Shown one piece after another: positions 1 through 27,072 of a DNA stretch of 64,000 nucleotides. Both the position numbers and the translations under genes were made by a program. The DNA is taken from contig JAYZQT010000056.1 of NCBI GenBank assembly GCA_036136335.1, positions 25,797-89,796 on the forward strand. Reading direction: 5' to 3'. Position 1 is the first letter of the stretch, and each line of letters starts with the position of its first letter. The stretch comes from Pseudomonadota bacterium. GTDB lineage: Bacteria > Pseudomonadota > Alphaproteobacteria > MPNO01 > UBA830. Under the pieces are notes generated by a model. The model had not been told where the DNA came from. It did not search any database and was given only the letters and a program-made list of their open reading frames with translations.

Positions 1-564
1 TAGCCGGTCGCAGGGTGCGGTATCCCCGGAAAAGACAACAGACTTTCCATCCGCGCTATCGAGCCGTAACCCGAAACAGGGTGAAATTTCTCTTGGGATA
101 TGCTCCACGTAACAGGCCGATACCCTTACGAATTTATCTTCGAAAATCACACCCGGCTTCATTTCACGTACATCTGCGTTCAGTGCCTGCATATTGGCCT
201 GGCGTTGGGGGTACTGCACCCGTGCTTCAATATCCTTTCGATAGGCACCAGTTTTCGGTGACATGAGCGATTCCACGAAATCCGAAGTACCAATTGGACC
301 AATTACGACAGGGGGTTCCTGACGATTAGACATCCAAGTCGTGATCATGAAATAGGGAAAATCTGCTATGTGATCGTAATGAAGATGAGACAGAAAAACG
401 TGCCCGACGGCAGCCGGGTTCACGTTGGCTGCCACAATCTGGTTGGTTGCACCGTGACCACAATCGAAGAGGTAATGTTCGTTACCTGTGGAGATCAAGA
501 TTCCGGAATCGTGGCGGTCCGGGTTAGGCATGGCAGCACTGGTACCCAACATGATTATTCTCAT
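1..564 (-). CDS. MBL-fold metallo-hydrolase (3' end lies beyond the window start)
   Basis: My own translation from the minus-strand ATG at 564 gives MRIIMLGTSAAMPNPDRHDSGILISTGNEHYLFDCGHGATNQ...VFLSHLHYDHIADFPYF. It contains the HxHxDH metallo-beta-lactamase motif. The ORF stays open to position 1, so it is missing from the supplied track. Confidence 0.75.
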   Translation of the reverse strand, partial: MRIIMLGTSAAMPNPDRHDSGILISTGNEHYLFDCGHGATNQIVAANVNPAAVGHVFLSHLHYDHIADFPYFMITTWMSNRQEPPVVIGPIGTSDFVESLMSPKTGAYRKDIEARVQYPQRQANMQALNADVREMKPGVIFEDKFVRVSACYVEHIPREISPCFGLRLDSADGKSVVFSGDTAPCDRL

Positions 565-569
565 AACAA

Positions 570-716
570 CTAACCCACAAATTTTGCCGCTTGCTTGGCG
601 CGAACTTCCCTGAAAATTAACAGTACGGCAACCAGAGCACCAGTTATGTCGGTCCATATGCCCATTTCCACGGCGTTGGCCGGGATCATCAACAACACCC
701 CGGCTAAAATGAACAT
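570..716 (-). CDS. small hydrophobic ORF (48 aa), hypothetical membrane peptide
   Basis: My own translation gives MFILAGVLLMIPANAVEMGIWTDITGALVAVLLIFREVRAKQAAKFVG. The TAG stop lies 5 nt upstream of the MBL hydrolase ATG. It is below the track length cutoff and I recognise no family. Confidence 0.25.
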   Translation of the reverse strand: MFILAGVLLMIPANAVEMGIWTDITGALVAVLLIFREVRAKQAAKFVG

Positions 717-844: not shown

Positions 845-1558
845 TCAGATTCCGAGATAAGCCTGCTTTATGGAATCGTCCGTCAGAAGTTGTGCACCCG
901 TGCCGGACAACACGACGCGACCATTTTCCATCACATAGGCCTGGTCAGCAATTTCGAGCGTCGAACGGATATCCTGTTCCACGATGAATACGGTCACGCC
1001 GCTGTCACGCACCCGAACCACCGTCTCGAATAGAAGCTGCGAAATAGCCGGCGCCAGTCCCAGGCTAGGTTCATCAAGGAGCAGCATGGTTGGTTCCGAC
1101 ATCAGGCCGCGCGCCAAGGCCAGCATTTGCTGTTCGCCACCCGAGAGAGTTTCGCCATGCTGATTGCGTCGCTCGCGCAGCCTTGGGAACAGTTTAAACA
1201 TCTTTTCCAAATTGGCATCGGTTCGGGTTCGGGCGCGGGTCACGAATGCACCGACCCGCAGGTTCTGTTCGACCGTAAAATCCGGGAAAATCATGCGCCC
1301 CTCCGGCACAAGTGAAATACCCAATGCGACACGCTGGTCGGCAGGTTGGTCGCCGATCTCGACGTCAGCGAACTGAATATCCCCCGCACTATGATGCAAC
1401 AATCCGGAAATTGTCCGCATCAGTGTCGTCTTGCCCGCTCCGTTGCTGCCGACCAACGCTGTAATAGATCCTTCTTTCACCCGCAATGCGACGTCGTGCA
1501 GTACCTTGACCTCCCCATAGCCCGCTGACAGTTTTCGAATTTCAAGCAGCACCGTCAT
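845..1558 (-). CDS. ABC transporter ATP-binding protein, LivF-type (HAAT family)
   Basis: Walker A GSNGAGKTT, signature LSGGEQQ and Walker B LLLDEPS. ATGA overlap with the upstream ATPase gene. Confidence 0.9.
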   Translation of the reverse strand: MTVLLEIRKLSAGYGEVKVLHDVALRVKEGSITALVGSNGAGKTTLMRTISGLLHHSAGDIQFADVEIGDQPADQRVALGISLVPEGRMIFPDFTVEQNLRVGAFVTRARTRTDANLEKMFKLFPRLRERRNQHGETLSGGEQQMLALARGLMSEPTMLLLDEPSLGLAPAISQLLFETVVRVRDSGVTVFIVEQDIRSTLEIADQAYVMENGRVVLSGTGAQLLTDDSIKQAYLGI

Positions 1559-2283
1559 GATCGGGTTCCAAGGTAAGAGTCAATGACCCGCGCGTCATTG
1601 GCGACTTCCTGCGGTGAGCCCTCAGCGATCAGCGCGCCATGGTGCAGAACGACAATTCTTGGACACAGGTCCATCAGAATTCCCATCACATGTTCCACGA
1701 CAATGACTGTCAGATTGCGCGCTTTTTGGAGCCGCCGGATCATGGTGACCGCGTCGGCGCCTTCGGTTGGCGTCAGGCCGGCCATCACCTCATCAAGCAT
1801 CCGCAATTTTGGGTTAGTAGCGAGCGCACGAGCGATTTCCAGACGTTTCCGGCCAGAAAGCGTAAGAGCGCTGGCATAATCTCCCGAGCGAGCGGCGAGC
1901 CCCACCTCCTCCAAAACCTCCTTGGCGTCGGCGTTGGCGCGCGTCATTGACTTTGTTCTGGAGCTGCCGAAAAGAGCGCTAATAGTCACATTTTCGAGCA
2001 CGGTAAGTCCGGCAAACGGACGGACAATCTGAAATGTTCGCGCTACGCCGAGACTGCTGATCTGATCGGGACGCAGTCGATCAATCCGCCGACCGTCGAA
2101 CAGGATCTCACCCGCTGATGGCCGAAGATTACCGGCGATCAGGCTGAACAACGTCGTTTTGCCGGCGCCGTTTGCGCCCATTAACCCTACGATTTCACTC
2201 GGTTCGATTGCAAACCCAACGCTGTTGACGGCAACTACCCCTCCGAAACGGCGGCTGACATCCGTGAGACGAAGCAAGGTCAT
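1555..2283 (-). CDS. ABC transporter ATP-binding protein, LivG-type
   Basis: MTLLRLTDVSRRFGG..., Walker A GANGAGKTT, signature LSGRKRLEIARAL. I chose the start at internal Met 38 of the track ORF because it forms an ATGA overlap with the upstream permease stop. Confidence 0.9.
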   Translation of the reverse strand: MTLLRLTDVSRRFGGVVAVNSVGFAIEPSEIVGLMGANGAGKTTLFSLIAGNLRPSAGEILFDGRRIDRLRPDQISSLGVARTFQIVRPFAGLTVLENVTISALFGSSRTKSMTRANADAKEVLEEVGLAARSGDYASALTLSGRKRLEIARALATNPKLRMLDEVMAGLTPTEGADAVTMIRRLQKARNLTVIVVEHVMGILMDLCPRIVVLHHGALIAEGSPQEVANDARVIDSYLGTRS

Positions 2284-3200
2284 CGCGCCTTGCGTCGCTG
2301 AAATGCGGTGAGCCAGCCTTGTATCCCGTCCGGCGCGCGGAGCACGAAGCCGACAAGAAACGCGCCGAGCAGGATCATGTATATCTCCGGCCAATTAGCC
2401 CACAGCAATTCCTGCAACAACACCAGGAAACATGCGCCGTAGACGGGGCCCGGTACGTCATCGCCGCCGCCGATGATTGCCATTGAGACGATGGTGAAAG
2501 ATGTGATTGGGTTGAACACGTCGAGCGGCTCGAAATAGGTCGTACGCAGCACCACGACCGATCCCACCATTCCGGGGATGATCGCTGACAATGCGAACGC
2601 CAGCACCTTGAACCGCGCGACGTTGATACCAACCGTTTCCGCGGCCTCTTCATTCTCGCGGATCGCGCGCAGCCCGGCGCCGAAGCGTGACCGGCGCACC
2701 GTGTAGGTGATTATCATCGAGCTGACCGCGAGAACCAAAATGACATAAAATAGCTGATCGAGGCTCGGCGCACCCATCAGCAGTCGCCCGAACTTGCCGA
2801 GTGCGGCCTCTACATTGATCACTATGTATTTCACCAGTTCGGCGAGGCCGAATGTCAGTATCACGAAGTAGGGACCGCGTACGCGCAGGCAGGGATAGCC
2901 CACCAACAACGCCAGCACCCCGGTTGCCGCGCCGGCAGTCAGAACCGAGATCCAGAACGGCAGCACGCCGAACGTCAATACCATCACATAGGCGCCGGCG
3001 CCGAAGAACACCGCATGGCCGAGCGAGATATACCCAGTCATCGCAGACAGAACGACCCAGCTTTGAGTTAACGCGATCCACATCAGCAAAGTCAGTGCCA
3101 CCCCGGTGATGTAGTCGCTGCCATAGAGCGGGATGGTCGCGCAAACGGCTATGGCGCTGGCCAGGGTCAGTAATACCCGGGATCGGTGATTAGGGTTCAT
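2280..3200 (-). CDS. branched-chain-amino-acid-type ABC permease, LivM-like
   Basis: Polytopic membrane protein. The segment YISLGHAVFFGAGAYV is typical of LivM-family permeases. Confidence 0.9.
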   Translation of the reverse strand: MNPNHRSRVLLTLASAIAVCATIPLYGSDYITGVALTLLMWIALTQSWVVLSAMTGYISLGHAVFFGAGAYVMVLTFGVLPFWISVLTAGAATGVLALLVGYPCLRVRGPYFVILTFGLAELVKYIVINVEAALGKFGRLLMGAPSLDQLFYVILVLAVSSMIITYTVRRSRFGAGLRAIRENEEAAETVGINVARFKVLAFALSAIIPGMVGSVVVLRTTYFEPLDVFNPITSFTIVSMAIIGGGDDVPGPVYGACFLVLLQELLWANWPEIYMILLGAFLVGFVLRAPDGIQGWLTAFQRRKAR

Positions 3201-3422
3201 GGAGATGGTCTGCCGGAGGAATTGTGTTTCGTCGGGACCTTAAAGGGTCTGAATGCCAACACAGGTGGCCGTTTCGGCCGCGTAGGCAAACCATTCGAGC
3301 GCGTTGGAAAGTCTTGATGATGCATCGCAGTGCCTGCAATTTCTCCCGTGCTCGTTGGGTCGCCGCGGTCCCCATGGGCCTTCATCAGTGATCCTTGGTA
3401 TAAGAGGTCATCGGAAACTTTA

Positions 3423-4316
3423 TCACCGCGCAGCACCGCGAGCACCGAACAGGCCGTGCGGCCGCCATACCAGAATGCCAATGAACACGCCATATAACAG
3501 AATCGAGCGCATGCTAGCCGAGGTCAAGGCGACGCCGTAGACCTCAATGACGGCCAGAAGGAACGCCCCTGCGAGGCCGCCATACAGGTTGCCAAGCCCG
3601 CCAAGGATGATCACGACAAAGGCGGCGATGGTGAAAGGAAATCCCATGAATGGTGAAATCTGTTCAAGCATGCTGATAAGCCCGCCGGCGAGCCCCGCGA
3701 TGCCGAAACCGAGCGAAAAGCTGATCAACCGCACGCGCTCCACATTGATGCCAACCAGTGCCGCCGCGTCCGGGCGCTGGATAAGGGCGCGTATCGCAAG
3801 ACCTGTCATGGACATCCGGAAATACAGGATACAGGCAGCGCAAACGGCCAGGCCGATCACCAGCACGACCAGCCGGTTTGCGGTCACCTGAAAATCCCCA
3901 ATGGGGATAATCTGATCGAGATAGGGATAGGCCCGGGCCGTCGCGGTGAAAGACAGCGCAACCACATTCTGCAGTATGATAGAACCGCCAAACAAAAGCA
4001 GGAGCGAGTTCGCCTCTATTTGCTCAACCAGCTTGGAGGCCGTCAGAACCCGCCGGCAGAGAAAATGATATACCAATGCGCCCAACGCGGCCGCCAGTGC
4101 CATGGCGACAAACATCGAATAAAGCGGCCCGATCCCGATCAGGGTAAAGGACCAAAACGACAAATATGCCCCCAGCATCAGTATCTCACCGTGCGCAACG
4201 TTCAGCAGGCGCATGGTGCCGTAAATCAGATTTAGTCCCAGAGCCACCAGGCCGTATATCACCCCAAGGACAAGGGTCGCGACTGCCAATTGGCCGGATA
4301 ACAGGTCACCCATCAT
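3423..4316 (-). CDS. branched-chain-amino-acid-type ABC permease, LivH-like
   Basis: Polytopic membrane protein. The N-terminal region GVIYGLVALGLNLIYGTMRLLNVAHGE is typical of the LivH family. Confidence 0.9.
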   Translation of the reverse strand: MMGDLLSGQLAVATLVLGVIYGLVALGLNLIYGTMRLLNVAHGEILMLGAYLSFWSFTLIGIGPLYSMFVAMALAAALGALVYHFLCRRVLTASKLVEQIEANSLLLLFGGSIILQNVVALSFTATARAYPYLDQIIPIGDFQVTANRLVVLVIGLAVCAACILYFRMSMTGLAIRALIQRPDAAALVGINVERVRLISFSLGFGIAGLAGGLISMLEQISPFMGFPFTIAAFVVIILGGLGNLYGGLAGAFLLAVIEVYGVALTSASMRSILLYGVFIGILVWRPHGLFGARGAAR

Positions 4317-4388
4317 GATGTCCTGAAGAGGAGGGTCGCCCTACCGCTATTCCGCGCAACAAGGCGGCCGTGCCTCCGATCGATAGGC

Positions 4389-5567
4389 TTATTTCCAGAC
4401 CGGCTTGGCGATAATTTTCGACGTTGCCTGATCAGCGGGCCACACAATATGCTGCTGCCCATTCTGGATTTGCGAGATCATCGTCGGCAGAGCAATGTTT
4501 TCGACTCCCTTAAATCGCACCGGACCGTTTATGGATTTGAACGTGGTCGAAGAGATGACCTGGCGCAGCTTGTTTTTATCGAGGCCCGCCTTGGCGACTG
4601 CCTGCTGCAAAATCTGGACCGACATATAGGCAAGTGGCGCATCGAGATAATCGGCGTTGGTTTTCCAGCGCGCCTTGAAATCATCGAAGAAAACCTTTGC
4701 CGTCGGCCAGTCCTTGCGCAGCGGCGTCCAATGTCCCATCGTCACCAGACCGTTGCGTGTCGGTCCGAAAATTTTCGCGAAGAAATCATACTGCGGCCCG
4801 AGCAGAACAACCTGAGTCGCTGCGTTGAGGCCAACTTCGCGAGCGCCCTTGACGTAGAGCACTGCGTCGCCGGGATAGGTGTATGCGAGCACCGCATCGG
4901 GCTTAGCCTTCTTGACCTTGTTGAGCAGTGCGGTCATGTCCTTGACGTTGGGGGGATAGTCCTCGTTGACCAGCAGCTTGATCCCAGCTGCTTTGAGCGC
5001 CGGAACCACGAACTTTTTGTTTTCCTGGGTATAGGGTAACTGGTTGGTGATCAACGCCGCTGAGGCCACGCCTTGTTTCTTGAGAAGCTTGGCGAGTTCC
5101 ACGCTTTGGCGGTCGGGGAACAGTGAGGTCGGGAACCAGATATTGCCTGCCTTGAGATCGCGAAGCTGCACCGAAGCGGCGGTGTTGCCGATAACAGGAA
5201 ATTTATACCGCGATATGACGCCAACGATTGCGAAATGAAGCGAGGTCCCCCAGGGTGCCAGCAGCAGGTCGACCTTGTCGTCGGTAATGAGCTTTTCATA
5301 TATCTGGACTGCCTTTCCCGAATTTGACTGGTCGTCATAATGGACGAATTCAATTTCGCGCCGGGATCCAGCGACATCGAGCCCACCGAGCGCGTTCATC
5401 TGTTCCCGCCAGAGTTCATAGGACTGCAGCTGCGAGGTAGCCGCTGCCGCGAAGATGCCGGTCTTCGAGTGGGAAAATCCGATCTTGATCGGATCCGCTG
5501 CGCCAACCGCTGTCGCAATCAGCAGCGCAGTCAGCCCCGCGAGGGTGGGTACAATTCGTTTGAACAT
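4389..5567 (-). CDS. ABC transporter periplasmic substrate-binding protein (LivK/type 1 PBP family)
   Basis: Signal peptide MFKRIVPTLAGLTALLIATAVGAADP. The start at 5567 is preceded by a GGAGG ribosome binding site (caaggaggcaaccATG). The track ORF extends 16 codons further upstream. Confidence 0.85.
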   Translation of the reverse strand: MFKRIVPTLAGLTALLIATAVGAADPIKIGFSHSKTGIFAAAATSQLQSYELWREQMNALGGLDVAGSRREIEFVHYDDQSNSGKAVQIYEKLITDDKVDLLLAPWGTSLHFAIVGVISRYKFPVIGNTAASVQLRDLKAGNIWFPTSLFPDRQSVELAKLLKKQGVASAALITNQLPYTQENKKFVVPALKAAGIKLLVNEDYPPNVKDMTALLNKVKKAKPDAVLAYTYPGDAVLYVKGAREVGLNAATQVVLLGPQYDFFAKIFGPTRNGLVTMGHWTPLRKDWPTAKVFFDDFKARWKTNADYLDAPLAYMSVQILQQAVAKAGLDKNKLRQVISSTTFKSINGPVRFKGVENIALPTMISQIQNGQQHIVWPADQATSKIIAKPVWK

Positions 5568-5658
5568 GGTTGCCTCCTTGTTGGTTTTTGGCCTCGTGGT
5601 GACACACGAGGCCATTATGGGAAATTATGGCGAAATCCGCCGCCGCCGTAAACCGGCG

Positions 5659-6732
5659 TCAGGGTTCGAACAGTCCTGGCCCGGGTTCACGGATAAGCTG
5701 CATGGTGTTGCATCGGATACCGCCACCATATTTATGAACCTCGTCATAGGGAATGGCTATAACCTCAACGCCCGCCGCTTCCAGCAGCGCGCGCGTCTTG
5801 ACCGCGCTCTCGTTCATGATGACCTGCCGGGGTTCGGTTGTGATGCCATTCGTCGGGTAAAGGTTGATCTCGTCGCGAGGGGCCTCAATCAGCTCATAGC
5901 CGAGTTCGTGTAAGTCGCGGATGGTCTGGTAATTGCACCAGGGCGGATAGATCATGGCTAGCCTGACATCAAGCGGCATGATCCACATGTCGGCATGCAT
6001 CCAACCGGGAACTTCCTCATGGTAGTCGTATAGCGGACCCGGACTGTGGGCTAGAAGCACCTTCTCGTATCCTGCTCGCCTCAGTACCGGCATGACCTGT
6101 TCCGCCCCCTCACGATTGCAGTCGGTCGACAGCATCAGCACGATAAAATCATCGGCCATCCGCACCGCGGCGCCGATCTCACAGACGCCGTGACCGTGCA
6201 CGGTATGCAGAATCGGGCAACCGAGATCCATTAAAGCCTTGGAAACGTATCGCGATCGTCCGCGCCAATAGGGCGGGGCCTCGCGCGGAATAATAGCGCC
6301 GCCGTTGATCACAAATCCGGCGGCCGCTGAAATCGAGCGTTTCATTGGCCCGTACGCCGACATGGGTGGATCGTCCGCCCACCGGATTTCGTGAACTGTC
6401 ACGCCCATAGACTCATATGTCTTGACCAGGCCCGCATGTTGTTCCTGCATCAGCTCCAGATTGGGGGTGATGCCGTTGAAGACGAAGAACGCGGAATCCT
6501 GTTCATAAAGCTCGAGCACTTCGCTTTCGGTTGGCTTGACCATTGCGACCTCGCGCAATTTCCCGATTCCCTGCGCGCCCCATGGCTTGCCCCAGATGCG
6601 CTCGAGCTCGTCGAGATAGGAGACCTCTGTGTGATAACGTTGATATTGAGGGACCCTGCCTTCTTCGTAGTAAGGAAAGTCGTCGAATGTCTCAGCGACC
6701 GACGGTTGATCGCTTTCATCTTCGTCCGTCAT
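5659..6732 (-). CDS. amidinotransferase / arginine deiminase / DDAH-fold (guanidino-group-modifying) enzyme
   Basis: The C-terminal YGGGIRCNT segment matches the conserved nucleophile-Cys context of this fold. ATGA overlap with the upstream amidohydrolase. Family-level call only. Confidence 0.65.
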   Translation of the reverse strand: MTDEDESDQPSVAETFDDFPYYEEGRVPQYQRYHTEVSYLDELERIWGKPWGAQGIGKLREVAMVKPTESEVLELYEQDSAFFVFNGITPNLELMQEQHAGLVKTYESMGVTVHEIRWADDPPMSAYGPMKRSISAAAGFVINGGAIIPREAPPYWRGRSRYVSKALMDLGCPILHTVHGHGVCEIGAAVRMADDFIVLMLSTDCNREGAEQVMPVLRRAGYEKVLLAHSPGPLYDYHEEVPGWMHADMWIMPLDVRLAMIYPPWCNYQTIRDLHELGYELIEAPRDEINLYPTNGITTEPRQVIMNESAVKTRALLEAAGVEVIAIPYDEVHKYGGGIRCNTMQLIREPGPGLFEP

Positions 6733-8261
6733 GTCGGGTCTCCTGTCCGCAGTGCGCCCCCCGGCGGAGTGTTGCCGAATTCGAGCGCGGCAATTCTGGA
6801 CCGCTGGTGAATTTCCTCAAAATAGGGTGCAAGGCGCATGGAGCCCGCTTTCATGACCGGCACGAAATCCCGGACATAGCGGTCTGCCGCCTCGCAAATT
6901 TCGCTGCGCAGGGCATCTTCGTCGATGTTTTGAATTTTACGATTTCGCATGACCACGCCACCCTCGACAATCACTGTCTGGACAGCCTCCGAGGTCACCG
7001 AAAACGCGAGTTGGCGTATGGGGTTTGTCAGGGGGACGAAGCCCCAGTGGTCGCGGTCGAGCAGGATCACATCAGCGCGCTTCCCGACCTCGAGGCTGCC
7101 GACTTCACGCTCCATCATCCCACTTTGGGCCCCCCCCATGGTTGCCATGCGGAAAACGTCCGCGCCCGCGACCCAGTCGCCGTGATGCGTGGCCGGGTTT
7201 TTGTGCATCAGGCTCGCCGCGCGGATTGCTTCGATCAGATCGGCGGTGTCGCTGGTCGCCAGGCCATCGGTGCCGAGCGCGACGTTAATGCCGGCATCGA
7301 GCAGCTTTCGTAATGGACAGATGCCGCTGCCAAGCTTCATGTTGGAAAGCGGGTTGTGCACGACCGAGCACCCATTGTCGGCCAGCAGACCGATGTCCCG
7401 GTCGTTCAGCCATATGCCGTGAACAATGGTCAGCCGCGGTGACAGGAAGCCAATGTCGTCGAGGTATTCGATCGCCGTTTTGCCCCATTGATCCTGGGCC
7501 TGAACGGCTTGCAGCCGGGTTTCCAACGTGTGGCTGTGCAGCGGAACGTCATGGCGGGCCGAAAGCTCGTTGATCTCCTCCATGAGCTTGATTGTGCAGC
7601 GCTGGGGTCCGCATGGCGCGAGGATGATGCGGATGCGGTCGTCATGGCCATGCCAGTTGTCGAACTGTAGACGAAACAGGTCGAGCTGAGCTGCGAAATC
7701 GGCTAATGGTAACGCATTAATTTCATGCTGTTCCACCGCCGGAATGATGTCCCGCGCATAGGGTACGCAGTCGAGCAGCGGTACGTCCCACATATCGACC
7801 GCGACCCAGGCGCGCAGTCCAATATCGGCATAGGCCCGAATCGCGGCATCCATCGCTCCAGGCGTCGCGGGTGGATGGACATAGTCGTCCTGAACCGTGG
7901 TCACGCCGGCTCGCACCGATTCGATCGCAGCGAGCATGGTGCGGAGATAATAATCGTGCTCGCTCAACAACGGGAACCCAAAGGGCGGATAGCTCTCACC
8001 GAGCCAGATTTCGAGCGGCAGATTATCGTAGACGCCCTGTTGGAACGCTTCGTTCGAATGGAGATGTGCGTTGATCAGCCCCGGCATGATGATCGAGCCC
8101 GAGGAATCAATCACCTCGCCGTCGTATCCTTCGCCGACGTCCGGGCCGATCGCTTCGATACGTCCGGCTTCGATAACGACGTCGGCGCGTGGCAATTCGG
8201 TCTCCACCGCGTCGCCAGTTACCACCCAGCCATTTTTGAGGATCAGCGCGTCATCCGCCAT
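6729..8261 (-). CDS. amidohydrolase-superfamily deaminase/chlorohydrolase-like enzyme
   Basis: MADDALILKNGWVVTGD...PGLINAHLHSNE (HxH metal-binding motif), with downstream HSHTLE and TDG segments typical of guanine/cytosine-deaminase-like amidohydrolases. I moved the start to Met 58 of the track ORF. That start overlaps the upstream stop by 11 nt. Confidence 0.8.
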   Translation of the reverse strand: MADDALILKNGWVVTGDAVETELPRADVVIEAGRIEAIGPDVGEGYDGEVIDSSGSIIMPGLINAHLHSNEAFQQGVYDNLPLEIWLGESYPPFGFPLLSEHDYYLRTMLAAIESVRAGVTTVQDDYVHPPATPGAMDAAIRAYADIGLRAWVAVDMWDVPLLDCVPYARDIIPAVEQHEINALPLADFAAQLDLFRLQFDNWHGHDDRIRIILAPCGPQRCTIKLMEEINELSARHDVPLHSHTLETRLQAVQAQDQWGKTAIEYLDDIGFLSPRLTIVHGIWLNDRDIGLLADNGCSVVHNPLSNMKLGSGICPLRKLLDAGINVALGTDGLATSDTADLIEAIRAASLMHKNPATHHGDWVAGADVFRMATMGGAQSGMMEREVGSLEVGKRADVILLDRDHWGFVPLTNPIRQLAFSVTSEAVQTVIVEGGVVMRNRKIQNIDEDALRSEICEAADRYVRDFVPVMKAGSMRLAPYFEEIHQRSRIAALEFGNTPPGGALRTGDPT

Positions 8262-10578
8262 CGGTTTTTTCGCGCAACGCGCGTAGAACGTTTTCGGACG
8301 ACATGGGCAGACGCCGTAACCGAATTCCGCTGGTATGTGCCAAGGCATTTGCGATGGCCGGCGCGATCCCGACAATTGGTGGCTCACCGATGCCCTTGGC
8401 CCCGAATGGGCCGGTCTCGTCGGGCTCTTCAATCAGAATGGTATTGATCTTTGGAGGAGACTCGACTGTTCCCGGAATTTTGTAATCCATCAGCGAGGGG
8501 TTCGCGAGTCGTCCAGTGTCCCAGACCATTTCTTCGTAAAGTGCGTATCCGATGCCCTGAACCACCCCCCCTTCGACCTGCCCGGCCACTGATGAGGGAT
8601 TTATCGCTTTGCCAATGTCATGGGCTGACCAGACTTCGAGCGGCGTAATCTTGCCGGTTGCTTCGTCCAGTTCGATCTCTACTGCCTGTGCGGCAAAGAT
8701 CCACGCCCCAATCTTGCCGAATGGGAAACCCTTGATGAAACCGCGTTTGGGATCGAAGCTTTCCCCATCAAATGCCAGTGAATTACTGCCAATTACCGGG
8801 CCACCCTCGACCCAGTGTGCAAATCCGGAAATCTCGCCAAAGGTAACTTTTGCTTCCGGAACACCGCTGATTCCGATTATTCCGCCAGGCCTCATTTCAA
8901 GATCTTCGGGTGCACACTCCATCATCGAGGCGGCGCGTTGTTTGAGCTGCTCAATAACAGAATCTGCAGCGGCCACCACAGCGCGCCCGGTCATGTAGGT
9001 CACCCGGCTGGCTGTGGTGCCCCAGTTATATGGAGAAGAATCGGTATCTGGGGTTGCGAGGCTGATTTTATCGACGTCGATGCCCAGCGCGCCCGCACAC
9101 ATCTGTACCAGGACCGTGTCTGATCCCTGCCCGTTGTCAACCGCACCTGTGTTCAGTACGGCAGTACCGTCTTCGAGAATCCGGATGATCGCGCCGGAGG
9201 TTAAAAGACCCGAAATATGGGGCATGCAAGCGATGCCGATGCTTCGGCGTTTGCCGTCGACGGGCGGTCCCAAGGCTGCCGCGCGGCGATTTTGCCAGTC
9301 GCTTGAATCACGTACCTGTGTCAGGCATTCACTCATCGCGTCATTAGAAGCCGCCAGACCACCAAGCCATTCTTCGTTTGGCCTCGCCGCATTTTTCAGC
9401 CGCAGGTCAATCGGATCCATGCCAATTTTGTCAGCAATTTCGTCTATCTGTGTTTCGCCCGCAATCGCCACCTGTGGGCCGCCGAAGCCTCGAAACGCTC
9501 CCGCCCGGAGTTTGTTGGTATAGACCGCCCGCGATTCTACCGACACATTTTGGATGTGGTACGGACCCCGGCAGAACAGCGCACAAATGCCCGCAACGCC
9601 GGGGCTGTCATCACCGTAGGCGCCTGCGTCAAGACGAATATCGACTTTTCGGGCGACCAACGTGCCGTCTTTCGTGGCTCCGGTCTTCATCCAAACCCTG
9701 GACGGATGCCGAGACCGGATCATCTCAAAGTCCTGCTCGCGGCTCAGGGTAAGTTTGACCGGGCGGTTTGCCTTGATGGTCAGGCCTACAACAATAGGCT
9801 GAATTGTCTGTTCCATCTTGCCGCCGAACGCGCCGCCCACCCGTGGGGTAACACAGCGTACTTTCGACATGGGCATATCAAGGGACTGTGCAATATTCGC
9901 CTGCAGGTGAAACACTGACTGATTGCCGGACCAGACGGTGACCTTGCCGTTAGCGTCAATATCTGCAAGCGCCGAGCAGGGTTCCATATATGTATGGCAC
10001 TGCGCCTGTGTCTCATATTCACCTTCGACGATTACGTCGCATTGCGCCCATGCGTTTTCCGCGTCACCTTCCTCGACCTCCATGATTGACATTACGTTGG
10101 GTGCGTGTTCGGATTCATAGGTCTTCAAGAGTTCTTCAAAATTGTCATGCACCATTGGGGCATCTTCCGCCATGGCCTGGTCAATCGACAGGACGGCGGG
10201 CAGTTCTTCATATTCGATTTCGATTAGCGCGACAGCGCGCCGTGCGGTCAGTTGATCGACCGCGGCAACGGCCGCTACCGGTTCGCCGATATAGCGCACT
10301 TTGCCTTTGGCAATAGCAGTTTCGTCGTGCACGAAGGGACCAATGTAATTGTACCCAATGTCGTCACCGGTGAAGGATGCGACGACGCCTGGAACTTCCA
10401 GCGCGGCGGAAACATCGCAGGATACAATACGCGCATGTGCGTAGGGGCTTTGCTGAACGGCTGCGTGCAGCATGCCAGGTCGCGATAGGTCGTCTGTGTA
10501 TTCCGCGCGGCCAGTGATTTTTTCTCGGGCTTCGAGGCGGGGCAGGTCCTGCCCCACAGGATTTTGATAAACGGTCAT
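8251..10578 (-). CDS. xanthine dehydrogenase family molybdopterin-binding large subunit
   Basis: 781-aa track ORF. Contains GAFRGFGGPQ and AKGIGEPP, typical of XDH / aldehyde-oxidoreductase-type Mo subunits. The start at 10578 gives an ATGA overlap with the 2Fe-2S subunit stop. Confidence 0.9.
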   Translation of the reverse strand: MTVYQNPVGQDLPRLEAREKITGRAEYTDDLSRPGMLHAAVQQSPYAHARIVSCDVSAALEVPGVVASFTGDDIGYNYIGPFVHDETAIAKGKVRYIGEPVAAVAAVDQLTARRAVALIEIEYEELPAVLSIDQAMAEDAPMVHDNFEELLKTYESEHAPNVMSIMEVEEGDAENAWAQCDVIVEGEYETQAQCHTYMEPCSALADIDANGKVTVWSGNQSVFHLQANIAQSLDMPMSKVRCVTPRVGGAFGGKMEQTIQPIVVGLTIKANRPVKLTLSREQDFEMIRSRHPSRVWMKTGATKDGTLVARKVDIRLDAGAYGDDSPGVAGICALFCRGPYHIQNVSVESRAVYTNKLRAGAFRGFGGPQVAIAGETQIDEIADKIGMDPIDLRLKNAARPNEEWLGGLAASNDAMSECLTQVRDSSDWQNRRAAALGPPVDGKRRSIGIACMPHISGLLTSGAIIRILEDGTAVLNTGAVDNGQGSDTVLVQMCAGALGIDVDKISLATPDTDSSPYNWGTTASRVTYMTGRAVVAAADSVIEQLKQRAASMMECAPEDLEMRPGGIIGISGVPEAKVTFGEISGFAHWVEGGPVIGSNSLAFDGESFDPKRGFIKGFPFGKIGAWIFAAQAVEIELDEATGKITPLEVWSAHDIGKAINPSSVAGQVEGGVVQGIGYALYEEMVWDTGRLANPSLMDYKIPGTVESPPKINTILIEEPDETGPFGAKGIGEPPIVGIAPAIANALAHTSGIRLRRLPMSSENVLRALREKTDGG

Positions 10579-11051
10579 TTCGGCTCCGTGCCGCACACCG
10601 AGCGAACAGCATCAATCACTTTTACATAGCCCGAACAACGGCACAGATTACCAGACAGACCTTCGCGGATCTCATCGTCCGACAGCTTTCTGTTGCTGGA
10701 AGCCAATGCTGTCGCTGCAATGATCATACCGGGTGTACAGAATCCGCACTGGGCGGCGCCACAATCCAGAAAGGCCTGCTGGACTGGCGACAACGTATCG
10801 TTTGATTCAATCCCTTCAATGGTTTTGATTTCCTTGCCCGTGCAATTGGCTGCGAGCGACAGGCATCCACGAACGATCTTTCCCTCGATCATCACGGTGC
10901 AGGCACCACAGACGCCCTGGTTGCACCCACGTTTTGTACCGGTGAGGTGCATTTCATCCCGCAGTACATGAAGCAGGGTATCGTTTGCGCGCACAAAGGC
11001 CTGCCGTATCTGGCCGTTTACCGATAGGCCAAGGGGTATTTTGTCGCTCAT
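10575..11051 (-). CDS. (2Fe-2S)-binding small subunit of the molybdoenzyme
   Basis: CNQGVCGACTV, QCGFCTPGM and NLCRCSGY cysteine clusters. Confidence 0.9.
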   Translation of the reverse strand: MSDKIPLGLSVNGQIRQAFVRANDTLLHVLRDEMHLTGTKRGCNQGVCGACTVMIEGKIVRGCLSLAANCTGKEIKTIEGIESNDTLSPVQQAFLDCGAAQCGFCTPGMIIAATALASSNRKLSDDEIREGLSGNLCRCSGYVKVIDAVRSVCGTEPK

Positions 11052-11902
11052 ACCTCTCCTTTCTGCGAATTACGGGCACGCGCCAACGCACGGGTGATCA
11101 GGACTGGTATAAGATTTAACCGGTATTCAGCGGTACCGCGAAAATCGTCTACAGGGTCAGCTGCCGCGATAATTTTTTCGGAGGCCAACGCAATCGTCTG
11201 GTCGGAAATTCCATCGACGCGCAACATGTTTTCCACCTCGATTGACCGGATAGGGGTCGGTGCGCAAGCGCCCACTGCAAGCCGTATATAATCGATGTTT
11301 CCTTGCCGTTCTTTCAGAACGACTGCCACCGACACAGTTGCGAAGTCCCCTTCGACACGGGCGAACTTTTCATAGGCAACCGCACCGTCTGGAGCTGGGG
11401 GAATAAGGACCGATGAGACCATTTCACCCTCTTGCAGCGCTGTCTCCAGGTAATCGACGAAGAATTCACCAGCCGGGATGTCCCGTTCGCCCTGTCCACC
11501 AGCGGTCCTTATTACGGCTTCAGCCGCAACCAGCGCTGCCGGATAATCTGCGGCGGAATCAGCATGCGCAATCGCGCCACCGATCGTTCCCATATTGCGG
11601 ATCGCAGGATGCCCTATCACGGACGCTGCCTCGGCGACGATGCGCTGTCCTTTATCGAAATCATTTGTTTCGGCGAGTGTGACGTGGTTTGTCATTGCGC
11701 CGATTACTGCGGTACCGTCGGAGGTCAGAGATATGCCTTTCAGGGTCTCGACATCGCGCAGGCTGACAAGCGCAGTTGGAGCAAGCAGGTCCGCATTCAT
11801 CATCGCAACAAGCGTGGCACCGCCGGCAAGGCAGCGAGCATCCTGGTCTTCGGCCAATAGCGCCACAACCTGATCAACCGTGCGTGGGTGGTGCAGCTTC
11901 AC
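11048..11902 (-). CDS. FAD-binding medium subunit (CoxM-like) of the molybdoenzyme
   Basis: The size (284 aa), the AGGATLV and NMGTIGG segments and its position directly upstream of the 2Fe-2S subunit (overlapping junction) match the FAD_binding_5 family. Confidence 0.9.
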   Translation of the reverse strand: MKLHHPRTVDQVVALLAEDQDARCLAGGATLVAMMNADLLAPTALVSLRDVETLKGISLTSDGTAVIGAMTNHVTLAETNDFDKGQRIVAEAASVIGHPAIRNMGTIGGAIAHADSAADYPAALVAAEAVIRTAGGQGERDIPAGEFFVDYLETALQEGEMVSSVLIPPAPDGAVAYEKFARVEGDFATVSVAVVLKERQGNIDYIRLAVGACAPTPIRSIEVENMLRVDGISDQTIALASEKIIAAADPVDDFRGTAEYRLNLIPVLITRALARARNSQKGEV

Positions 11903-11925
11903 GTCATGTCCCTGTTTTGCATATT

Positions 11926-12378
11926 TCAGTCTGCCAATTCGATCTGTGATCTAAAACTGTTAGCGAATTCCTCGCCGATCGCCTTGGCTTTTTTCTTCAT
12001 TATTCCGAGGCCGAACTTGCCGAGACGGCCAACCAGCGACACCTCTGACATATAATAGACCTCCGTTTCATTCGTATTAACACGCGTGAGACGCAATTCA
12101 CTGTTGGCTGTCAACATACTCGCCTTGCCTCCTTCTTCGCCGCGCGTGGTTGATTTGGCATAGATAGGAGCGTCCTGTTCAGTAAGTTCGACCGAAACGT
12201 TGAATGACGTTTTAATCGGACCGACCGCCACTTTTACGTTTGCTCGGTATTTGTTTTCCCCGAGCACTTCCACTTCGCCGCACCCGGGTATGCACGGCGC
12301 CATAAGGTCAGGTGCCATCATGAATTCCCAAACACGTTCGACCGGTGCTTTTACGGAAAATGTTTCCTCTATCTTCAT
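11926..12378 (-). CDS. CoxG / SRPBCC-family protein
   Basis: 150 aa, MKIEETFSVKAPVERVWEFMMAP.... This is the pattern of carbon monoxide dehydrogenase subunit G-like proteins, and the gene is adjacent to coxMSL-type genes. Confidence 0.8.
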   Translation of the reverse strand: MKIEETFSVKAPVERVWEFMMAPDLMAPCIPGCGEVEVLGENKYRANVKVAVGPIKTSFNVSVELTEQDAPIYAKSTTRGEEGGKASMLTANSELRLTRVNTNETEVYYMSEVSLVGRLGKFGLGIMKKKAKAIGEEFANSFRSQIELAD

Positions 12379-12390
12379 AACATTATTGGT

Positions 12391-13455
12391 TTAGCGATGC
12401 TCGCGGGCGACTACCATCTCGGGTTCGGTTAACCGCCCCTTGTCGACAATCAGTTTGTTGTCGAGCATGATTGAACAATCACGCATAGGGACATCGTAAT
12501 GCCCGGTTGTGGTGCGCTTGCCGCCGCCTTGCGAATTTGGTCCGGTCGAGAAAAGGAAGTTACCCGCAAAGGACCGCAGTGTCCCATTACTGCGATCCGG
12601 GTCGTCTCCATACAGCGCTACGTTGTCCCAGCGGCATTGTGGATTTAACCCCCAGCCAAGGTGGGAAATGGCGTGACCGTCCATGTCATCCGGATCGTCG
12701 CGGTTGTCTTCGAGCCAGTTATGCATCAGCTTTGCGTCGAGTCCGCCGTCAATCTTGCGAATGAAGCCGTCACGAACCTCGAGGCGGATTTCGTCGGTTA
12801 CGTAGCGGTTGTATGGCAGTACCACAAAATCCCCCGGACTGATCACCACAGTGCCATTTGCCGAGCCCTCGTTGGGAAATGTGTGCACGTGGCCACCCCC
12901 CCAGTGGTCAAAACGCCCAGGTTCATCTGCGTACCCGTACTGACTCATAACCGGGTATTCTCCGAGGGAAACCGTCAGATCCAGTCCGACGTCGTTAAAC
13001 ATTCGCATTGTTTTGCTCTCGGCGAGCCTTTTTTCTGCATGTAACACCGCCTCCTTTAGACCGGCGGGCGCCTGCGCCTGTTCGAGGTCATCAGGGTGGT
13101 CGACAATCATCTGTACCCGGGTTCCGGCGTCACGTACCTGCTTAAGCCAGCTGGTAAATAGGGGGACATGAAGACAGACCAGCATGTCGGCGGCAGAGAG
13201 CGCTTCCAACGTGCCCTTGCAGGCACCAATTGTGGCAACACCGACTTTAGTCCAGCTCGGCACCGAATTCACGCACATTGCGTAAGCATCGGCACCAAGA
13301 TCCTTGGCTGCGGCAAACGAAGCCTGAACGTATTCCTCTCGGGTCGCAAGGTCACTTAGCAATGCGACTGTCTCGCCCGGTTTTACGTTGCAAAGTTCGA
13401 ATTGCTTTCGAAAGAGAGCGGTTAATGCCGCAGGATTGGTCTGTTGAGGGCGCAT
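12391..13455 (-). CDS. 2,5-dihydroxypyridine 5,6-dioxygenase (NicX)-like, aminopeptidase-T-fold enzyme
   Basis: 354 aa. The segments YGYADEPGRFDHW, ISHLGWGL, FAGNFLFSTGPNSQGGGKR and GHYDVPMRDC resemble my recollection of NicX-family ring-cleavage dioxygenases (HxD iron ligands). An M29 aminopeptidase cannot be excluded without a search. Confidence 0.6.
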   Translation of the reverse strand: MRPQQTNPAALTALFRKQFELCNVKPGETVALLSDLATREEYVQASFAAAKDLGADAYAMCVNSVPSWTKVGVATIGACKGTLEALSAADMLVCLHVPLFTSWLKQVRDAGTRVQMIVDHPDDLEQAQAPAGLKEAVLHAEKRLAESKTMRMFNDVGLDLTVSLGEYPVMSQYGYADEPGRFDHWGGGHVHTFPNEGSANGTVVISPGDFVVLPYNRYVTDEIRLEVRDGFIRKIDGGLDAKLMHNWLEDNRDDPDDMDGHAISHLGWGLNPQCRWDNVALYGDDPDRSNGTLRSFAGNFLFSTGPNSQGGGKRTTTGHYDVPMRDCSIMLDNKLIVDKGRLTEPEMVVAREHR

Positions 13456-13480
13456 CCCATGGAGCTCCAGCTGGAATATT

Positions 13481-13497
13481 TGAAGGTAAAACCTTCA
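13481..13497. promoter_or_regulatory. perfect 7-3-7 palindrome TGAAGGT-AAA-ACCTTCA, candidate TetR operator
   Basis: Seen directly in the divergent intergenic region between the NicX-like gene (start 13455) and the TetR gene (start 13603). Confidence 0.35.
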
Positions 13498-13602
13498 CAC
13501 GCTGACCCAAACCTGTCAATAGTGTATAGGCTTCACTTTTGGTGTTGGCATTGGGAACTTCGTCGTACCCAATTTGTGGGCCGGTGATTGCGCGGGAAAA
13601 TC

Positions 13603-14217
13603 ATGGTTCAGGTAAAAAAAGTAGCAATACGCGAAGCCATTACCCGAAGTGCTCTCGGCCTTTTTTCAGAAAAGGGGTATTCCAGAACAACTATTGCCCA
13701 GATTGCCGAGCGCGCTGAAATTACGACATCTAATTTTTATCGATACTACGATTCCAAACTTGATGTGTTTTTCGCCGTATTTGGCCCCTGGCTGCGTTCC
13801 CACCTTGATGCGCTTGAACAGAGAGTTATGGGAATAAGTGATCCACGCGAAAGACTCAGAGAGGTTTTTATTGGTTTGTGGTGCGATATTCCGCGCGCTG
13901 ATAACGGGTTCAATAATAACATCGTGGAAGCCCTGGCTGCGTTCTCACCGGAGCAGCGATATTCAAGGTCGCTTTTGATCGAATCGGAACGGCGGGTATG
14001 GGGAATGGTTGCCGGCTGCGTTCCGGAGAATCGCTGGCAGTATATCAATGACAGCAGGCTGTCACACCTGATGTTTATGGCGGGCGATGGTTTTGCGCTG
14101 AATGTAAAGCTAGGCGGACCGTCTCCGCTTATTGGCCCCATAATTGAAATGATGTGCACCCTTATACTAGGTGAAGATTGCCGCAAACTACCCGAGATCG
14201 AAGGAGAGTTTCAATGA
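13603..14217 (+). CDS. TetR/AcrR family transcriptional regulator
   Basis: N-terminal HTH region ALGLFSEKGYSRTTIAQIAERAEITTSNFYRYYDSK. The first ATG is at 13603. The track ORF begins at a TTG at 13588. Confidence 0.85.
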   Translation: MVQVKKVAIREAITRSALGLFSEKGYSRTTIAQIAERAEITTSNFYRYYDSKLDVFFAVFGPWLRSHLDALEQRVMGISDPRERLREVFIGLWCDIPRADNGFNNNIVEALAAFSPEQRYSRSLLIESERRVWGMVAGCVPENRWQYINDSRLSHLMFMAGDGFALNVKLGGPSPLIGPIIEMMCTLILGEDCRKLPEIEGEFQ

Positions 14218-14978
14218 CCGAGAATGTTCTTGAAGGGGTCGCTCTGGTAACCGGTGCCGGTAGTGGAATAGCGCGAGCGCTTGCGCTACAGCTCGGTACT
14301 GCTGGTGCGGTTGTTGCCGTTGCCGATGTAAACCAGAAAACTGCTGCAGAAACTGCCAACGCTATCAACGCCGCAGGCGGTACATCTGCACCCTTCGCCT
14401 TGGATGTTGCCGACTCGCGTGCCGTGGACGATGTGGTTAACGTGATCGAGCGCGATCTCGGCCCGGTCACCCGTCTGGCAAACGTGGCGGGGGTATTTTC
14501 GACGTCTGCGCTCGCTGACATCTCCGACGATCAGTGGGCGCAGATCCTGTCTGTTCACCTTAACGGGACCTTTCACCTCTGCAGGCGGCTCGTACCTGCC
14601 ATGGCAAGTCGTGGTGGTGGCGCGGTTGTTAACACTTCGTCCATCTTCGCACTCAGGGGGCAGTCAGAAGCGTCCCACTACGCCGCCGCAAAGGGGGCAA
14701 TTATCGGATTTTCAAAATCGATAGCCCGCGAAGTAGGTGATGCGAATGTTCGGGTCAATGTGGTAGCACCTGGCCCGGTGGATACACCCTTTTTTGCCCA
14801 AGGCCTGTCCGGTGAGCAACTTGCCCGAGTGCGCGAGGAACGGGCCCGAATCATTCCTCTAGGCAAAATTGGGAGTGCAGAAGAGGTGGCCAGCGTAATA
14901 CTTTTTTTTCTCGGAGAGGGCAGCACACATATCACAGGTCAGGTCATTCCCGTCGATGGAGGCGAGGTGATGCGCTAG
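14214..14978 (+). CDS. SDR family oxidoreductase
   Basis: TGAGSGIA cofactor motif, NVAG, and the catalytic YAAAK (YxxxK). ATGA overlap with the TetR stop. Confidence 0.9.
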   Translation: MTENVLEGVALVTGAGSGIARALALQLGTAGAVVAVADVNQKTAAETANAINAAGGTSAPFALDVADSRAVDDVVNVIERDLGPVTRLANVAGVFSTSALADISDDQWAQILSVHLNGTFHLCRRLVPAMASRGGGAVVNTSSIFALRGQSEASHYAAAKGAIIGFSKSIAREVGDANVRVNVVAPGPVDTPFFAQGLSGEQLARVREERARIIPLGKIGSAEEVASVILFFLGEGSTHITGQVIPVDGGEVMR

Positions 14979-15439
14979 AGACCGGAGAGGGTGAGTTTTT
15001 AATGTTTAATGAGTGGGTTTACACGCCATCTTCCGAACTGGATTTTCAGCGATTTCCGGCTTGGACCAAGGACATACAGCAAACTTTTTACACCAGCATG
15101 CCCAACAGCATTTGCACATCAAATGACACCCGAATTCTGGTTTGCCATCGTGTGACACTAGATCGCGCATTCAATTCAGGTAAAGGATCCTCAGTCGGCC
15201 TCACTTCTAGGCATTGTTGCTGGGGTCTGTAGGTTGTCAAATTTGCACAAATCCCACACTCTGCGCACTTGATCAAAGAATTGGGCAAGCCAGTGGACAC
15301 CTGAGGACTAAACTTTGTGATGACAGGATTAGCATTATCCGGCAATCCTGCCTTCGGTGGATCGTTGAGCAAAGAATAGCGAGAGGCCCTAGAAGTTGGC
15401 CATGCCGGCTGCGACCACCTTACAAATGAATCGAAGGCC

Positions 15440-26034: not shown

Positions 26035-26064
26035 CACCAATACACGGAATGAGGGGGCCACAAG

Positions 26065-26550
26065 ATGAATGGAAGCGAAAGACGCGAATTCGTGCGTAAC
26101 CACCGGACCTGCGTATTTGGCTATCCCCGCATGGTGCACGGGCCATCACTGTCATGCGTCTACTATGTTATGGATGGGGATGATGTGCTTGTATCGTCGA
26201 TGCTCGGGCGCGCCAAGCCGAAGGCCGTAAATCGGGATGGGCGTGTATCTCTGTGCATATTGGATGAGAAGTGGCCACCAACATATATCACAGTCTACGG
26301 CACCGCCACAGTAGAGGAGAAAGGCGGCGACGATCTCCTGATTGCGGTGTGCGAGTTGATGGCAGAGCAGCCCATGCCTGCGGAGGAGCGGGAAAAGCTG
26401 CGCCAGCTAGCAATAGAAGAAGAACGCTGCGTCATAAGGGTTCGGCCCGAGTCTACCTTCGAGACGCCGCCTCGTCACGTCTATAACCCGGAAGATGTTG
26501 ACAAGCTCAGCCATTCGCTCGGTAACACGTTGCCGTGGGACGCGGAATGA
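26065..26550 (+). CDS. pyridoxamine 5'-phosphate oxidase-family (split-barrel flavin-binding) protein
   Basis: 161 aa. The pattern of PPOX-class flavoproteins (FVRNHRTCVFGY...VSLCILDE...YITVYGTATV). A GAGGGGG ribosome binding site lies upstream. Confidence 0.6.
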   Translation: MNGSERREFVRNHRTCVFGYPRMVHGPSLSCVYYVMDGDDVLVSSMLGRAKPKAVNRDGRVSLCILDEKWPPTYITVYGTATVEEKGGDDLLIAVCELMAEQPMPAEEREKLRQLAIEEERCVIRVRPESTFETPPRHVYNPEDVDKLSHSLGNTLPWDAE

Positions 26551-27071: not shown

Positions 27072-27072
27072 C

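Follow-up and report, generated by a model that had tools for sequence, protein, structure and literature searches.

Three described enzyme systems bear on the operon analysed here. HpdA, the 3-hydroxypyridine dehydrogenase of Ensifer adhaerens HP1, is a four-part molybdenum (Mo) hydroxylase with a separate SRPBCC subunit, which converts 3-hydroxypyridine to 2,5-dihydroxypyridine without a monooxygenase and passes this product straight on to ring cleavage, a precedent for the pathway proposed below (bioRxiv 10.1101/2020.01.08.898148). In the ring-cleavage dioxygenase NicX, Glu177 hydrogen-bonds N1 and O1 of the substrate, and the H105F variant remains active (PMC7910607). The third is the 2-nitroimidazole nitrohydrolase NnhA, whose authors take more than 50% identity as the mark of likely isofunctional homologues (PMC11659421). 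Counterparts of all three are encoded in one minus-strand operon at positions 845-13455 of the window, by which we mean the whole 64,000-nucleotide stretch analysed (contig JAYZQT010000056.1 of assembly GCA_036136335.1, positions 25,797-89,796; contig C56 below). We read the operon, with slightly less than even confidence, as a unit, under TetR control, for the catabolism of a small polar N-heteroaromatic compound, built from modules that are separate in other genomes. No described pathway with this gene set was found in the literature. The operon is a variation on the Mo hydroxylase/NicX/maleamate theme and introduces no new principle.

The operon genes were identified from a listing of open reading frames (ORFs), Pfam and NCBIfam scans, and sequence matches to PDB entries, and the comparison took in about 190 related loci. 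ORF calls in the high-GC related loci are prone to antisense artefacts, and one cluster turned out to be two Amidohydro_2 genes read through as one. The identities of the genes, their catalytic residues, the conserved synteny, and the modular make-up of the operon are directly established. Twelve recognisable co-directional genes run from 13455 down to 845, as seen in the ORF listing and family scans, and are separated, in gene order, by +12, +23, -4, -22, -11, -4, +43, +72, +222, -115, and -4 nucleotides (nt), the -115 being measured from the longest LivG ORF. A sequence-only reading of this DNA had described thirteen genes, most of whose junctions overlap or are shorter than 25 nt. The minus-strand array is real and eight of the eleven junctions are as described, but the number of recognisable genes is twelve; the claimed thirteenth can only be a small unsupported ORF in the 222-nt spacer between LivH and LivM (3201-3422). 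The spacer is single-copy in the genome, which rules out a repeat element, and it is missing from the closest relative, locus L001, where LivH and LivM overlap. Scans for consensus promoters and terminators gave matches at chance level only. The operon is real, and its anatomy had been described largely correctly.

The first gene (12391-13455, minus strand) encodes a 354-residue NicX-type Fe(II) ring-cleavage dioxygenase of a subfamily that we call Q-type. Residues 8-351 match NicX of Pseudomonas putida KT2440 (PDB 7cn3) with an E-value of 9e-66. The protein has no match in Pfam or NCBIfam, and no Peptidase_M29 match at E 0.001 or better. The 7cn3 match and the lack of an M29 match in Pfam rule out an M29 peptidase. 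The Fe ligands His265, Ser302, His318, and Asp320 of NicX correspond to H265, S303, H319, and D321, which are present in all relatives, and the equivalents of His189, Leu104, and Cys76 are retained. The protein groups with the ring-cleavage dioxygenases, as had been claimed. Glu177 is replaced by Gln172 and His105 by Phe100; the corresponding Cys/Leu/Phe/Met/Gln/His signature is found in 77 of the 80 closest homologues. The protein is thus a true NicX homologue, and is predicted to cleave 2,5-dihydroxypyridine to N-formylmaleamate. Gln172 was considered as a marker of a new substrate and dropped, because Gln can pair with a pyridone and some Q-type genes have NicC-like monooxygenase and NicD-like hydrolase genes beside them, the arrangement of ordinary nicotinate clusters.

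The Mo hydroxylase is encoded by the next four genes of the minus strand. In the conserved cluster, NicX and CoxM flank the gene for the CoxG/SRPBCC accessory subunit (11926-12378, 150 residues; Pfam COXG, E 4e-20). It is followed by the FAD subunit of the CoxM type (11048-11902, 284 residues; FAD_binding_5, CO_deh_flav_C), the 2x[2Fe-2S] subunit of the CoxS type (10575-11051, 158 residues; Fer2, Fer2_2), and the molybdopterin subunit of the CoxL type (8251-10596, 781 residues; Ald_Xan_dh_C, MoCoBD_1, MoCoBD_2). The best PDB match of CoxL is the alpha subunit of 4-hydroxybenzoyl-CoA reductase (1rm6, E 2e-118), and xanthine dehydrogenase (XDH) matches with E 1e-81. CoxL contains GAFRGFGGPQ at residue 366 and GEPP near its C-terminus. 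The CO-dehydrogenase loops AYRCSFR and AYRGAGR are absent from CoxL, which rules out a CO dehydrogenase. The Mo, FAD, and 2x[2Fe-2S] subunits together with the XDH-type loop place the enzyme in the xanthine-dehydrogenase family of Mo hydroxylases, and bear out the earlier description of an XDH-type enzyme with this loop and a separate CoxG.

The adjoining gene (6729-8261, minus strand) encodes a 510-residue TRZ/ATZ (cog0402) metal-dependent amidohydrolase (Pfam Amidohydro_1, E 4e-53), with the start taken at Met58 of the longest ORF. Its PDB matches, down to E 1e-53, include MTA/SAH deaminase, 8-oxoguanine deaminase, AtzA, and TrzN, and it scores below every NCBIfam equivalog cut-off. The metal and proton-shuttle motifs HLH66, HTLE244, VHG280, and GTDG330 are all invariant in the subfamily alignment. 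In eight Defluviicoccus-like genomes the amidohydrolase gene directly follows CoxM-CoxS-CoxL, the CoxL being 71-72% identical to that of the window, and these loci have no NnhA-like or NicX gene nearby. Because it follows CoxMSL in genomes where neither of the other two is at hand, the amidohydrolase is, on its placement, the partner of the Mo hydroxylase, forming a putative deaminase plus hydroxylase unit as in purine and pterin catabolism. Since its active site is of the deaminase type, a role as an upstream deaminase is more probable for the enzyme than replacement of NicD. The sequence-only reading had called it deaminase-like, with which the HxH/HxxE/H/D site agrees; the accompanying proposal, that it may replace NicD, NicF, and NicE together with the guanidino-modifying-enzyme (GME) fold protein, is less likely for the amidohydrolase, which travels with CoxMSL.

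That GME-fold, or pentein, protein is an NnhA-like cysteine hydrolase of 357 residues (5659-6732, minus strand), which matches NnhA (PDB 9azg) with an E-value of 1e-34 and is 31% identical to an annotated nnhA in a tblastn comparison. Cys357, His260, Glu197, Asp262, and Asn311 of NnhA correspond to C341, H246, E185, D248, and N295. The pocket residues named by Ahmed et al. (PMC11659421) were carried over to the window protein via the 9azg alignment. G143, F146, W149, M168, Y217, and C352 become R, S, A, W, C, and G, and F250 becomes D at a variable position, so that the window protein has neither the hydrophobic imidazole pocket of NnhA nor the degree of identity expected of an isofunctional homologue. 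The mapped pocket consists of R132, S135, A137, A138, W156, E185, A188, A189, D204, C205, D236, H246, A247, D248, M249, N295, G336, and C341. With the exception of positions 189 and 236 it is identical in all 30 family members tabulated, as is the loop that contains R157, R159, and R161.

The NnhA-like family has members in 31 species genomes, with identities of 59-94%, and spans Proteobacteria, Actinobacteria, and Chloroflexi. In Actinobacteria the partner CoxL falls to about 30% identity and the NnhA-like pocket is unchanged. Because the pocket is invariant while the partner diverges, the hydrolase appears to act on one substrate in all contexts, likely a small shared intermediate. The conserved residues point to a substrate of greater size and polarity than 2-nitroimidazole, which is probably an anion. 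Of the two Asp residues that clamp the guanidinium in ADI and DDAH, one is retained (D248) and Ala138 takes the place of the second, and the positions of the carboxylate-binding Arg residues are occupied by W156 and D204. A guanidino substrate was judged unlikely because of the Ala in place of the second Asp. Of the earlier assignment as an amidinotransferase/DDAH-fold enzyme, the fold is retained and the guanidino substrate is not, the protein being an NnhA relative that lacks this Asp.

NnhA-like genes also occur in other surroundings. In L023-L026, from Nanopelagicales and related Actinobacteria, NicX is absent. There, a different CoxMSL and a sugar-type ABC importer precede a 345-residue NnhA-like gene and two SDR genes come after it, in a neighbourhood that also includes genes for Amidohydro_2, ALDH, Rieske oxygenase, and VOC proteins. 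On a plasmid of Streptomyces sp. NBC_01727 (L039), the genes after an annotated nnhA encode a dihydropyrimidinase and an M20 hydrolase, and XdhC/CoxI is encoded a short distance away, a layout that suggests further breakdown of imidazol-2-one there.

Relatives of the NicX-like gene were found at 403 places in species-representative genomes, and the best 80 of these, 67-84% identical, were examined. Almost all belong to uncultured Alphaproteobacteria, whose habitats are soil, fresh water, the ocean, and sponges. Their recurrent core is a divergent TetR gene followed by NicX-CoxG-CoxM-CoxS-CoxL-Abhydrolase_3, a substrate-binding protein (SBP) gene, and LivHMGF, and it is complete in about a fifth of the 80 loci. 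Abhydrolase_3 lies near NicX in 27 loci, CoxL in 24, the full five-gene importer in about 27, and an NnhA-like gene in two. Locus L109 has the order NicX-CoxGMSL-Abhydrolase_3-SBP-LivHMGF-AS amidase. In L006, whose genes in common with L109 are 80-94% identical (87% for the binding protein), the amidohydrolase and NnhA-like genes are inserted between Abhydrolase_3 and the SBP gene, and both Abhydrolase_3 and the AS amidase are kept. The window and its nearest relative, L001, have both extra genes and have neither Abhydrolase_3 nor the AS amidase in the operon. The nearest relatives of the window's NicX and importer, L044-L055, contain an SDR/NicX-importer unit; an HpaB-type monooxygenase is encoded close by, and a Mo hydroxylase is not. 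L003, L041, and L043 have the order NicX-NnhA-ABC, again with no Mo hydroxylase nearby.

Judged by these gene orders, the operon is a mosaic of NicX, CoxG, a CoxMSL-amidohydrolase block, the NnhA-like gene, and an SBP-LivHMGF block, and the amidohydrolase and NnhA-like genes are separate additions to the core. An obligate pairing of the two was ruled out, since the amidohydrolase accompanies CoxMSL in eight genomes without NnhA and the NnhA-like gene occurs without this amidohydrolase in 25 of 31 loci, L029 having only a TRZ/ATZ relative of 32% identity. Plain replacement of the alpha/beta hydrolase by the NnhA-like enzyme was ruled out as well, because both are present in L003, L005, L006, L010, and L015.

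The same mosaic could be taken to mean that the operon encodes an ordinary maleamate pathway of the 3-hydroxypyridine or nicotinate type, and that the amidohydrolase and the NnhA-like enzyme are passengers that share its promoter and serve unrelated N scavenging from an amidino or ureido acid. The core cluster does occur without both genes in many genomes, and NicF- and NicE-like genes are available in trans. We nevertheless consider this quite improbable: both genes overlap their neighbours by 4-11 nt, the amidohydrolase comes after its Mo hydroxylase in the eight other genomes, NnhA-like genes recur beside a Mo hydroxylase or NicX in most loci, and the NnhA-like enzyme lacks the second guanidinium-binding Asp.

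Family scans detected no NicD, NicF, or NicE homologues within the operon, in agreement with the earlier claim of their absence, which does not extend to the genome. The source metagenome-assembled genome (MAG) has 3.5 Mb in 95 contigs, with a completeness of 90.8% and a contamination of 7.4%. The contig of the window also encodes, at C56:17126-17962, an Abhydrolase_3 hydrolase that is orthologous to the cluster type and 58% identical to that of L003. Its gene lies 8.7 kb before the start of the window, past the end of LivF by about 9.5 kb. On contig C57, a NicF-like isochorismatase gene (PDB 3ot4/3uao, E 4e-62) adjoins a gene of the Amdase/maleate-isomerase family. Two further NicX paralogues of greater divergence are encoded on C41 and C48, both with an alpha/beta hydrolase gene behind them. 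Glu177 is retained in the C41 paralogue, which has a NicC-like monooxygenase gene behind it as well; the other has Val at this position. The seemingly missing lower pathway of an operon can be supplied in trans.

From these components we infer the substrate, the order of steps, and the reaction of the NnhA-like enzyme. The Urt/Liv-type ABC importer would take up the compound. The TRZ/ATZ amidohydrolase and CoxG/CoxM/CoxS/CoxL would convert it, by hydrolytic deamination and hydroxylation next to the ring N, to a ring of the 2,5-dihydroxypyridine type, which the NicX-type dioxygenase would open. The NnhA-like cysteine hydrolase may then free N from a small anionic ring-fission amide or amidine, with maleamate or N-formylmaleamate as lead candidates, and the later steps may be carried out in trans by the alpha/beta hydrolase on the same contig and the NicF/NicE-like pair.

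The carbons adjacent to the ring N are the only ones open to a deaminase or a Mo hydroxylase. On chemical grounds we therefore expect that, for a ring of the 2,5-dihydroxypyridine type to arise without a monooxygenase, the imported compound has the 3-hydroxyl from the start, as a possibly aminated 3-hydroxypyridine type, or the ring is a 1,4-diazine. In the diazine case, a pyrazine or pyrazinone, for example from pterins, would take the place of the pyridine: the deaminase would turn an amino-pyrazine into a pyrazin-2-one, Mo hydroxylation at C5 would give 5-hydroxypyrazin-2-one, NicX would cleave it, and the NnhA-like enzyme would hydrolyse the imine- or amidine-type fission product. Such a route has the merit that the two upstream enzymes reach a para-dihydroxy ring from a diazine and not from an unsubstituted pyridine, and that its fission product would suit pentein chemistry. 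It would also be in line with the change of the substrate-binding Glu177 to Gln across the subfamily, and with the inclusion of pterin and isoxanthopterin deaminases in the TRZ/ATZ family (PDB 2paj match). Yet Gln pairs with 2-pyridone as well as Glu does, some Q-type NicX genes keep company with NicC-like and NicD-like genes, no diazine-cleaving NicX is known, and no direct evidence was found. We give the diazine only a slim chance.

Returning to the pyridine-type pathway, a role of the NnhA-like enzyme after ring cleavage fits the replacement series from L109 through L006 to the window and L001. It also fits the placement of a maiA-like GST gene immediately before the NnhA-like one in three loci (L015, L016, and L021), the occurrence of a Q-type NicX somewhere in 20 of the 31 genomes with an NnhA-like gene, and a deficit of lower-pathway genes. 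Among genomes with a Q-type NicX, NicF-like genes are present in 13 of the 25 with an NnhA-like gene and in 42 of the 45 without (Fisher p 1e-4), and NicE-like genes in 16 of 25 and 42 of 45 (p 0.006), counts that ignore kinship and include many incomplete MAGs, which lessens their weight for the proposed role. The enzyme is a possible replacement of NicF.

Several further observations weigh against this pathway. To our knowledge, no pentein-fold enzyme hydrolyses a plain amide, the known chemistry being attack on amidine-type carbons. The genome that contains the window holds a good NicF homologue of its own. The L006 cassette sits beside an alpha/beta hydrolase and an AS amidase, and looks accessory there. 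A deaminase and a Mo hydroxylase alone cannot install the 5-hydroxyl of a pyridine. Eight of the 31 genomes with an NnhA-like gene have no NicX-like gene at all.

Some of these observations would be accounted for if the NnhA-like enzyme acted before ring cleavage, replacing a leaving group (amino, nitro, or similar) next to the ring N of an anionic aza-arene to give a lactam. The lactam would pass to the Mo hydroxylase and NicX, and the hydrolase would, together with the TRZ/ATZ deaminase, widen the range of the pathway to aminated precursors. This is the only chemistry demonstrated for the nearest characterised relative (PMC11659421), and there is a precedent in riboflavin breakdown, where LumM hydrolyses an amino-azaarene carboxylate before a step of the xanthine-oxidase type (PMC12746152). 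In 20 of 31 loci the NnhA-like gene has Mo hydroxylase genes no more than 10 kb away, and these include loci without NicX, which is itself near in 13; an early step would also be compatible with the eight NicX-free genomes and with the L006 cassette as an addition to a complete cluster of the L109 type. In L003, L041, and L043, which lack the Mo hydroxylase, the NnhA-like enzyme could make the oxo group. Against an early step stand the pocket, which lacks the hydrophobic residues of NnhA and is invariant despite widely differing hydroxylases and transporters, and the NicF/NicE deficit and GST adjacency, which fit a downstream role better. We regard the early step as unlikely.

In either position, the family might represent a new, non-homologous N-releasing hydrolase of heterocycle catabolism: the first pentein to act on a ring-fission amide or amidine, as a stand-in for NicF, or a lactam-forming enzyme for amino-aza-arene carboxylates. 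In its bolder form this proposal has the Q-type NicX cleave a diazine, that is, a pathway for pyrazinones or pterin fragments. We hold the proposal to be doubtful, although it deserves consideration.

The importer genes form the last part of the operon, all on the minus strand. The periplasmic substrate-binding protein (4389-5615, 408 residues as ORF; Pfam Peripla_BP_6, E 1e-52) has an N-terminal signal-like segment, and its best PDB matches are to the urea-binding UrtA (E 1e-21). The permeases of the LivH/UrtB type (3423-4316) and the LivM/UrtC type (2280-3200), both with BPD_transp_2, are followed by ATPases of the LivG type (1555-2394; ABC_tran, BCA_ABC_TP_C) and the LivF type (845-1558; ABC_tran). 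The LivM-type permease has the same length as that in L001, and the true start of LivG is probably downstream of the listed TTG. The importer remains under the NCBIfam equivalog cut-offs, with 81.7 against 492 bits for UrtA, 173 against 250 for UrtB, and 88.7 against 379 for LivH. Judging by these matches, its architecture is Urt/Liv-like and nearer to the urea-type (Urt) than to branched-chain amino-acid systems; the UrtA matches and the higher UrtB than LivH score uphold the earlier statement that this Liv-type transporter is probably not a branched-chain amino-acid importer. From the Urt-like binding protein, a ligand that is small, polar, and planar may be expected.

On the plus strand, a divergent gene encodes a TetR-family regulator (13588-14217; Pfam TetR_N), which is likely the repressor of the operon; a TetR gene is divergent upstream of NicX in 18 of the 80 related loci. 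It is co-transcribed with an SDR oxidoreductase gene (14178-14978, plus strand; Pfam adh_short_C2), relatives of which, 55-59% identical, are divergent beside NicX in L045-L055. Between NicX and the TetR gene, positions 13481-13497 contain the inverted repeat TGAAGGT-AAA-ACCTTCA, a plausible candidate operator. It had been described as a perfect 17-bp palindrome; the repeat is there, in the form of a 7-3-7 inverted repeat and not of a perfect palindrome.

The source MAG contains about 48 matches to Mo hydroxylase large subunits, 18 to the isochorismatase family, and four NicX-like genes, an extreme expansion of N-heterocycle catabolic enzymes. A 5.8-kb contig, C10, is 84% identical in nucleotide sequence to window positions 11434-14984 (NicX/CoxG/TetR/SDR), with a NicX protein of 95% identity; it probably stems from a second strain or from contamination of the bin and not from a true duplication. 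Beside the operon, C56:20000-25800 together with window positions 1-657 encodes two MBL-fold proteins, a RutB/biuret-hydrolase-like isochorismatase (PDB 8bkd, E 4e-41), a protein with three RidA domains, and an FMO-like flavoprotein, which look like Rut-like parts of another N-heterocycle route. Further away in the window, at 24367-27669, the sequence-only reading had noted a split ComD/E-like TPP decarboxylase. It is reminiscent of LumK/LumL, which in lumichrome catabolism form a rare thiamin-dependent decarboxylase of heterocycles with two subunits (PMC12746152).

Clusters of a Mo hydroxylase and NicX abound in uncultured Alphaproteobacteria of aquatic habitats, soil, and sponges, where they probably handle a widespread small N heterocycle and release its N. 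The operon in the window is a compact version with all modules co-transcribed, which makes it a good template for heterologous reconstitution. It ties a branch of the pentein fold whose only studied relative is a nitroimidazole-resistance enzyme to N-heterocycle metabolism, a link that, if true, would extend the range of reactions known for the fold. The NnhA-like hydrolase family is the part most worth experiment.

Among known systems, P. putida NicX (PDB 7cn3; PMC7910607) is homologous to the window protein over its full length and has the same Fe ligands, whereas the window subfamily has Gln for Glu177 and Phe for His105, and NicD does not follow. The amidohydrolase has the complete metal and HxxE site in common with cog0402 deaminases and their relatives (8-oxoguanine, isoxanthopterin, and MTA/SAH deaminases, AtzA/TrzN, and the Cch2-type chlorohydrolase), and differs in its length of 510 residues with insertions and in its fixed place beside a Mo hydroxylase. 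NnhA of Mycobacterium sp. JS330 (PDB 9azg; PMC11659421) and the window enzyme have the same fold, length, and Cys/His/Glu, Asp, and Asn residues, but are about 30% identical, and the pocket of the window enzyme has smaller and charged residues in place of the hydrophobic ones and is flanked by an Arg-rich loop. In contrast to the Streptomyces nnhA locus with its hydantoinase and M20 hydrolase, the window family sits in Mo hydroxylase/NicX clusters. The closest characterised parallel to the operon as a whole is the 3hpd cluster (HpdA1A2A3A4 and the maleamate pathway), which likewise combines a four-part Mo hydroxylase including a separate SRPBCC/CoxG subunit with a 2,5-dihydroxypyridine dioxygenase and an ABC transporter. 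The two are not orthologous, since the best plasmid-borne CoxL in PLSDB is only 39% identical to that of the window. The window operon has a TetR regulator where 3hpd has a GntR regulator, and in place of the deformylase, amidase, and isomerase genes it carries those for the TRZ/ATZ amidohydrolase and the NnhA-like hydrolase.

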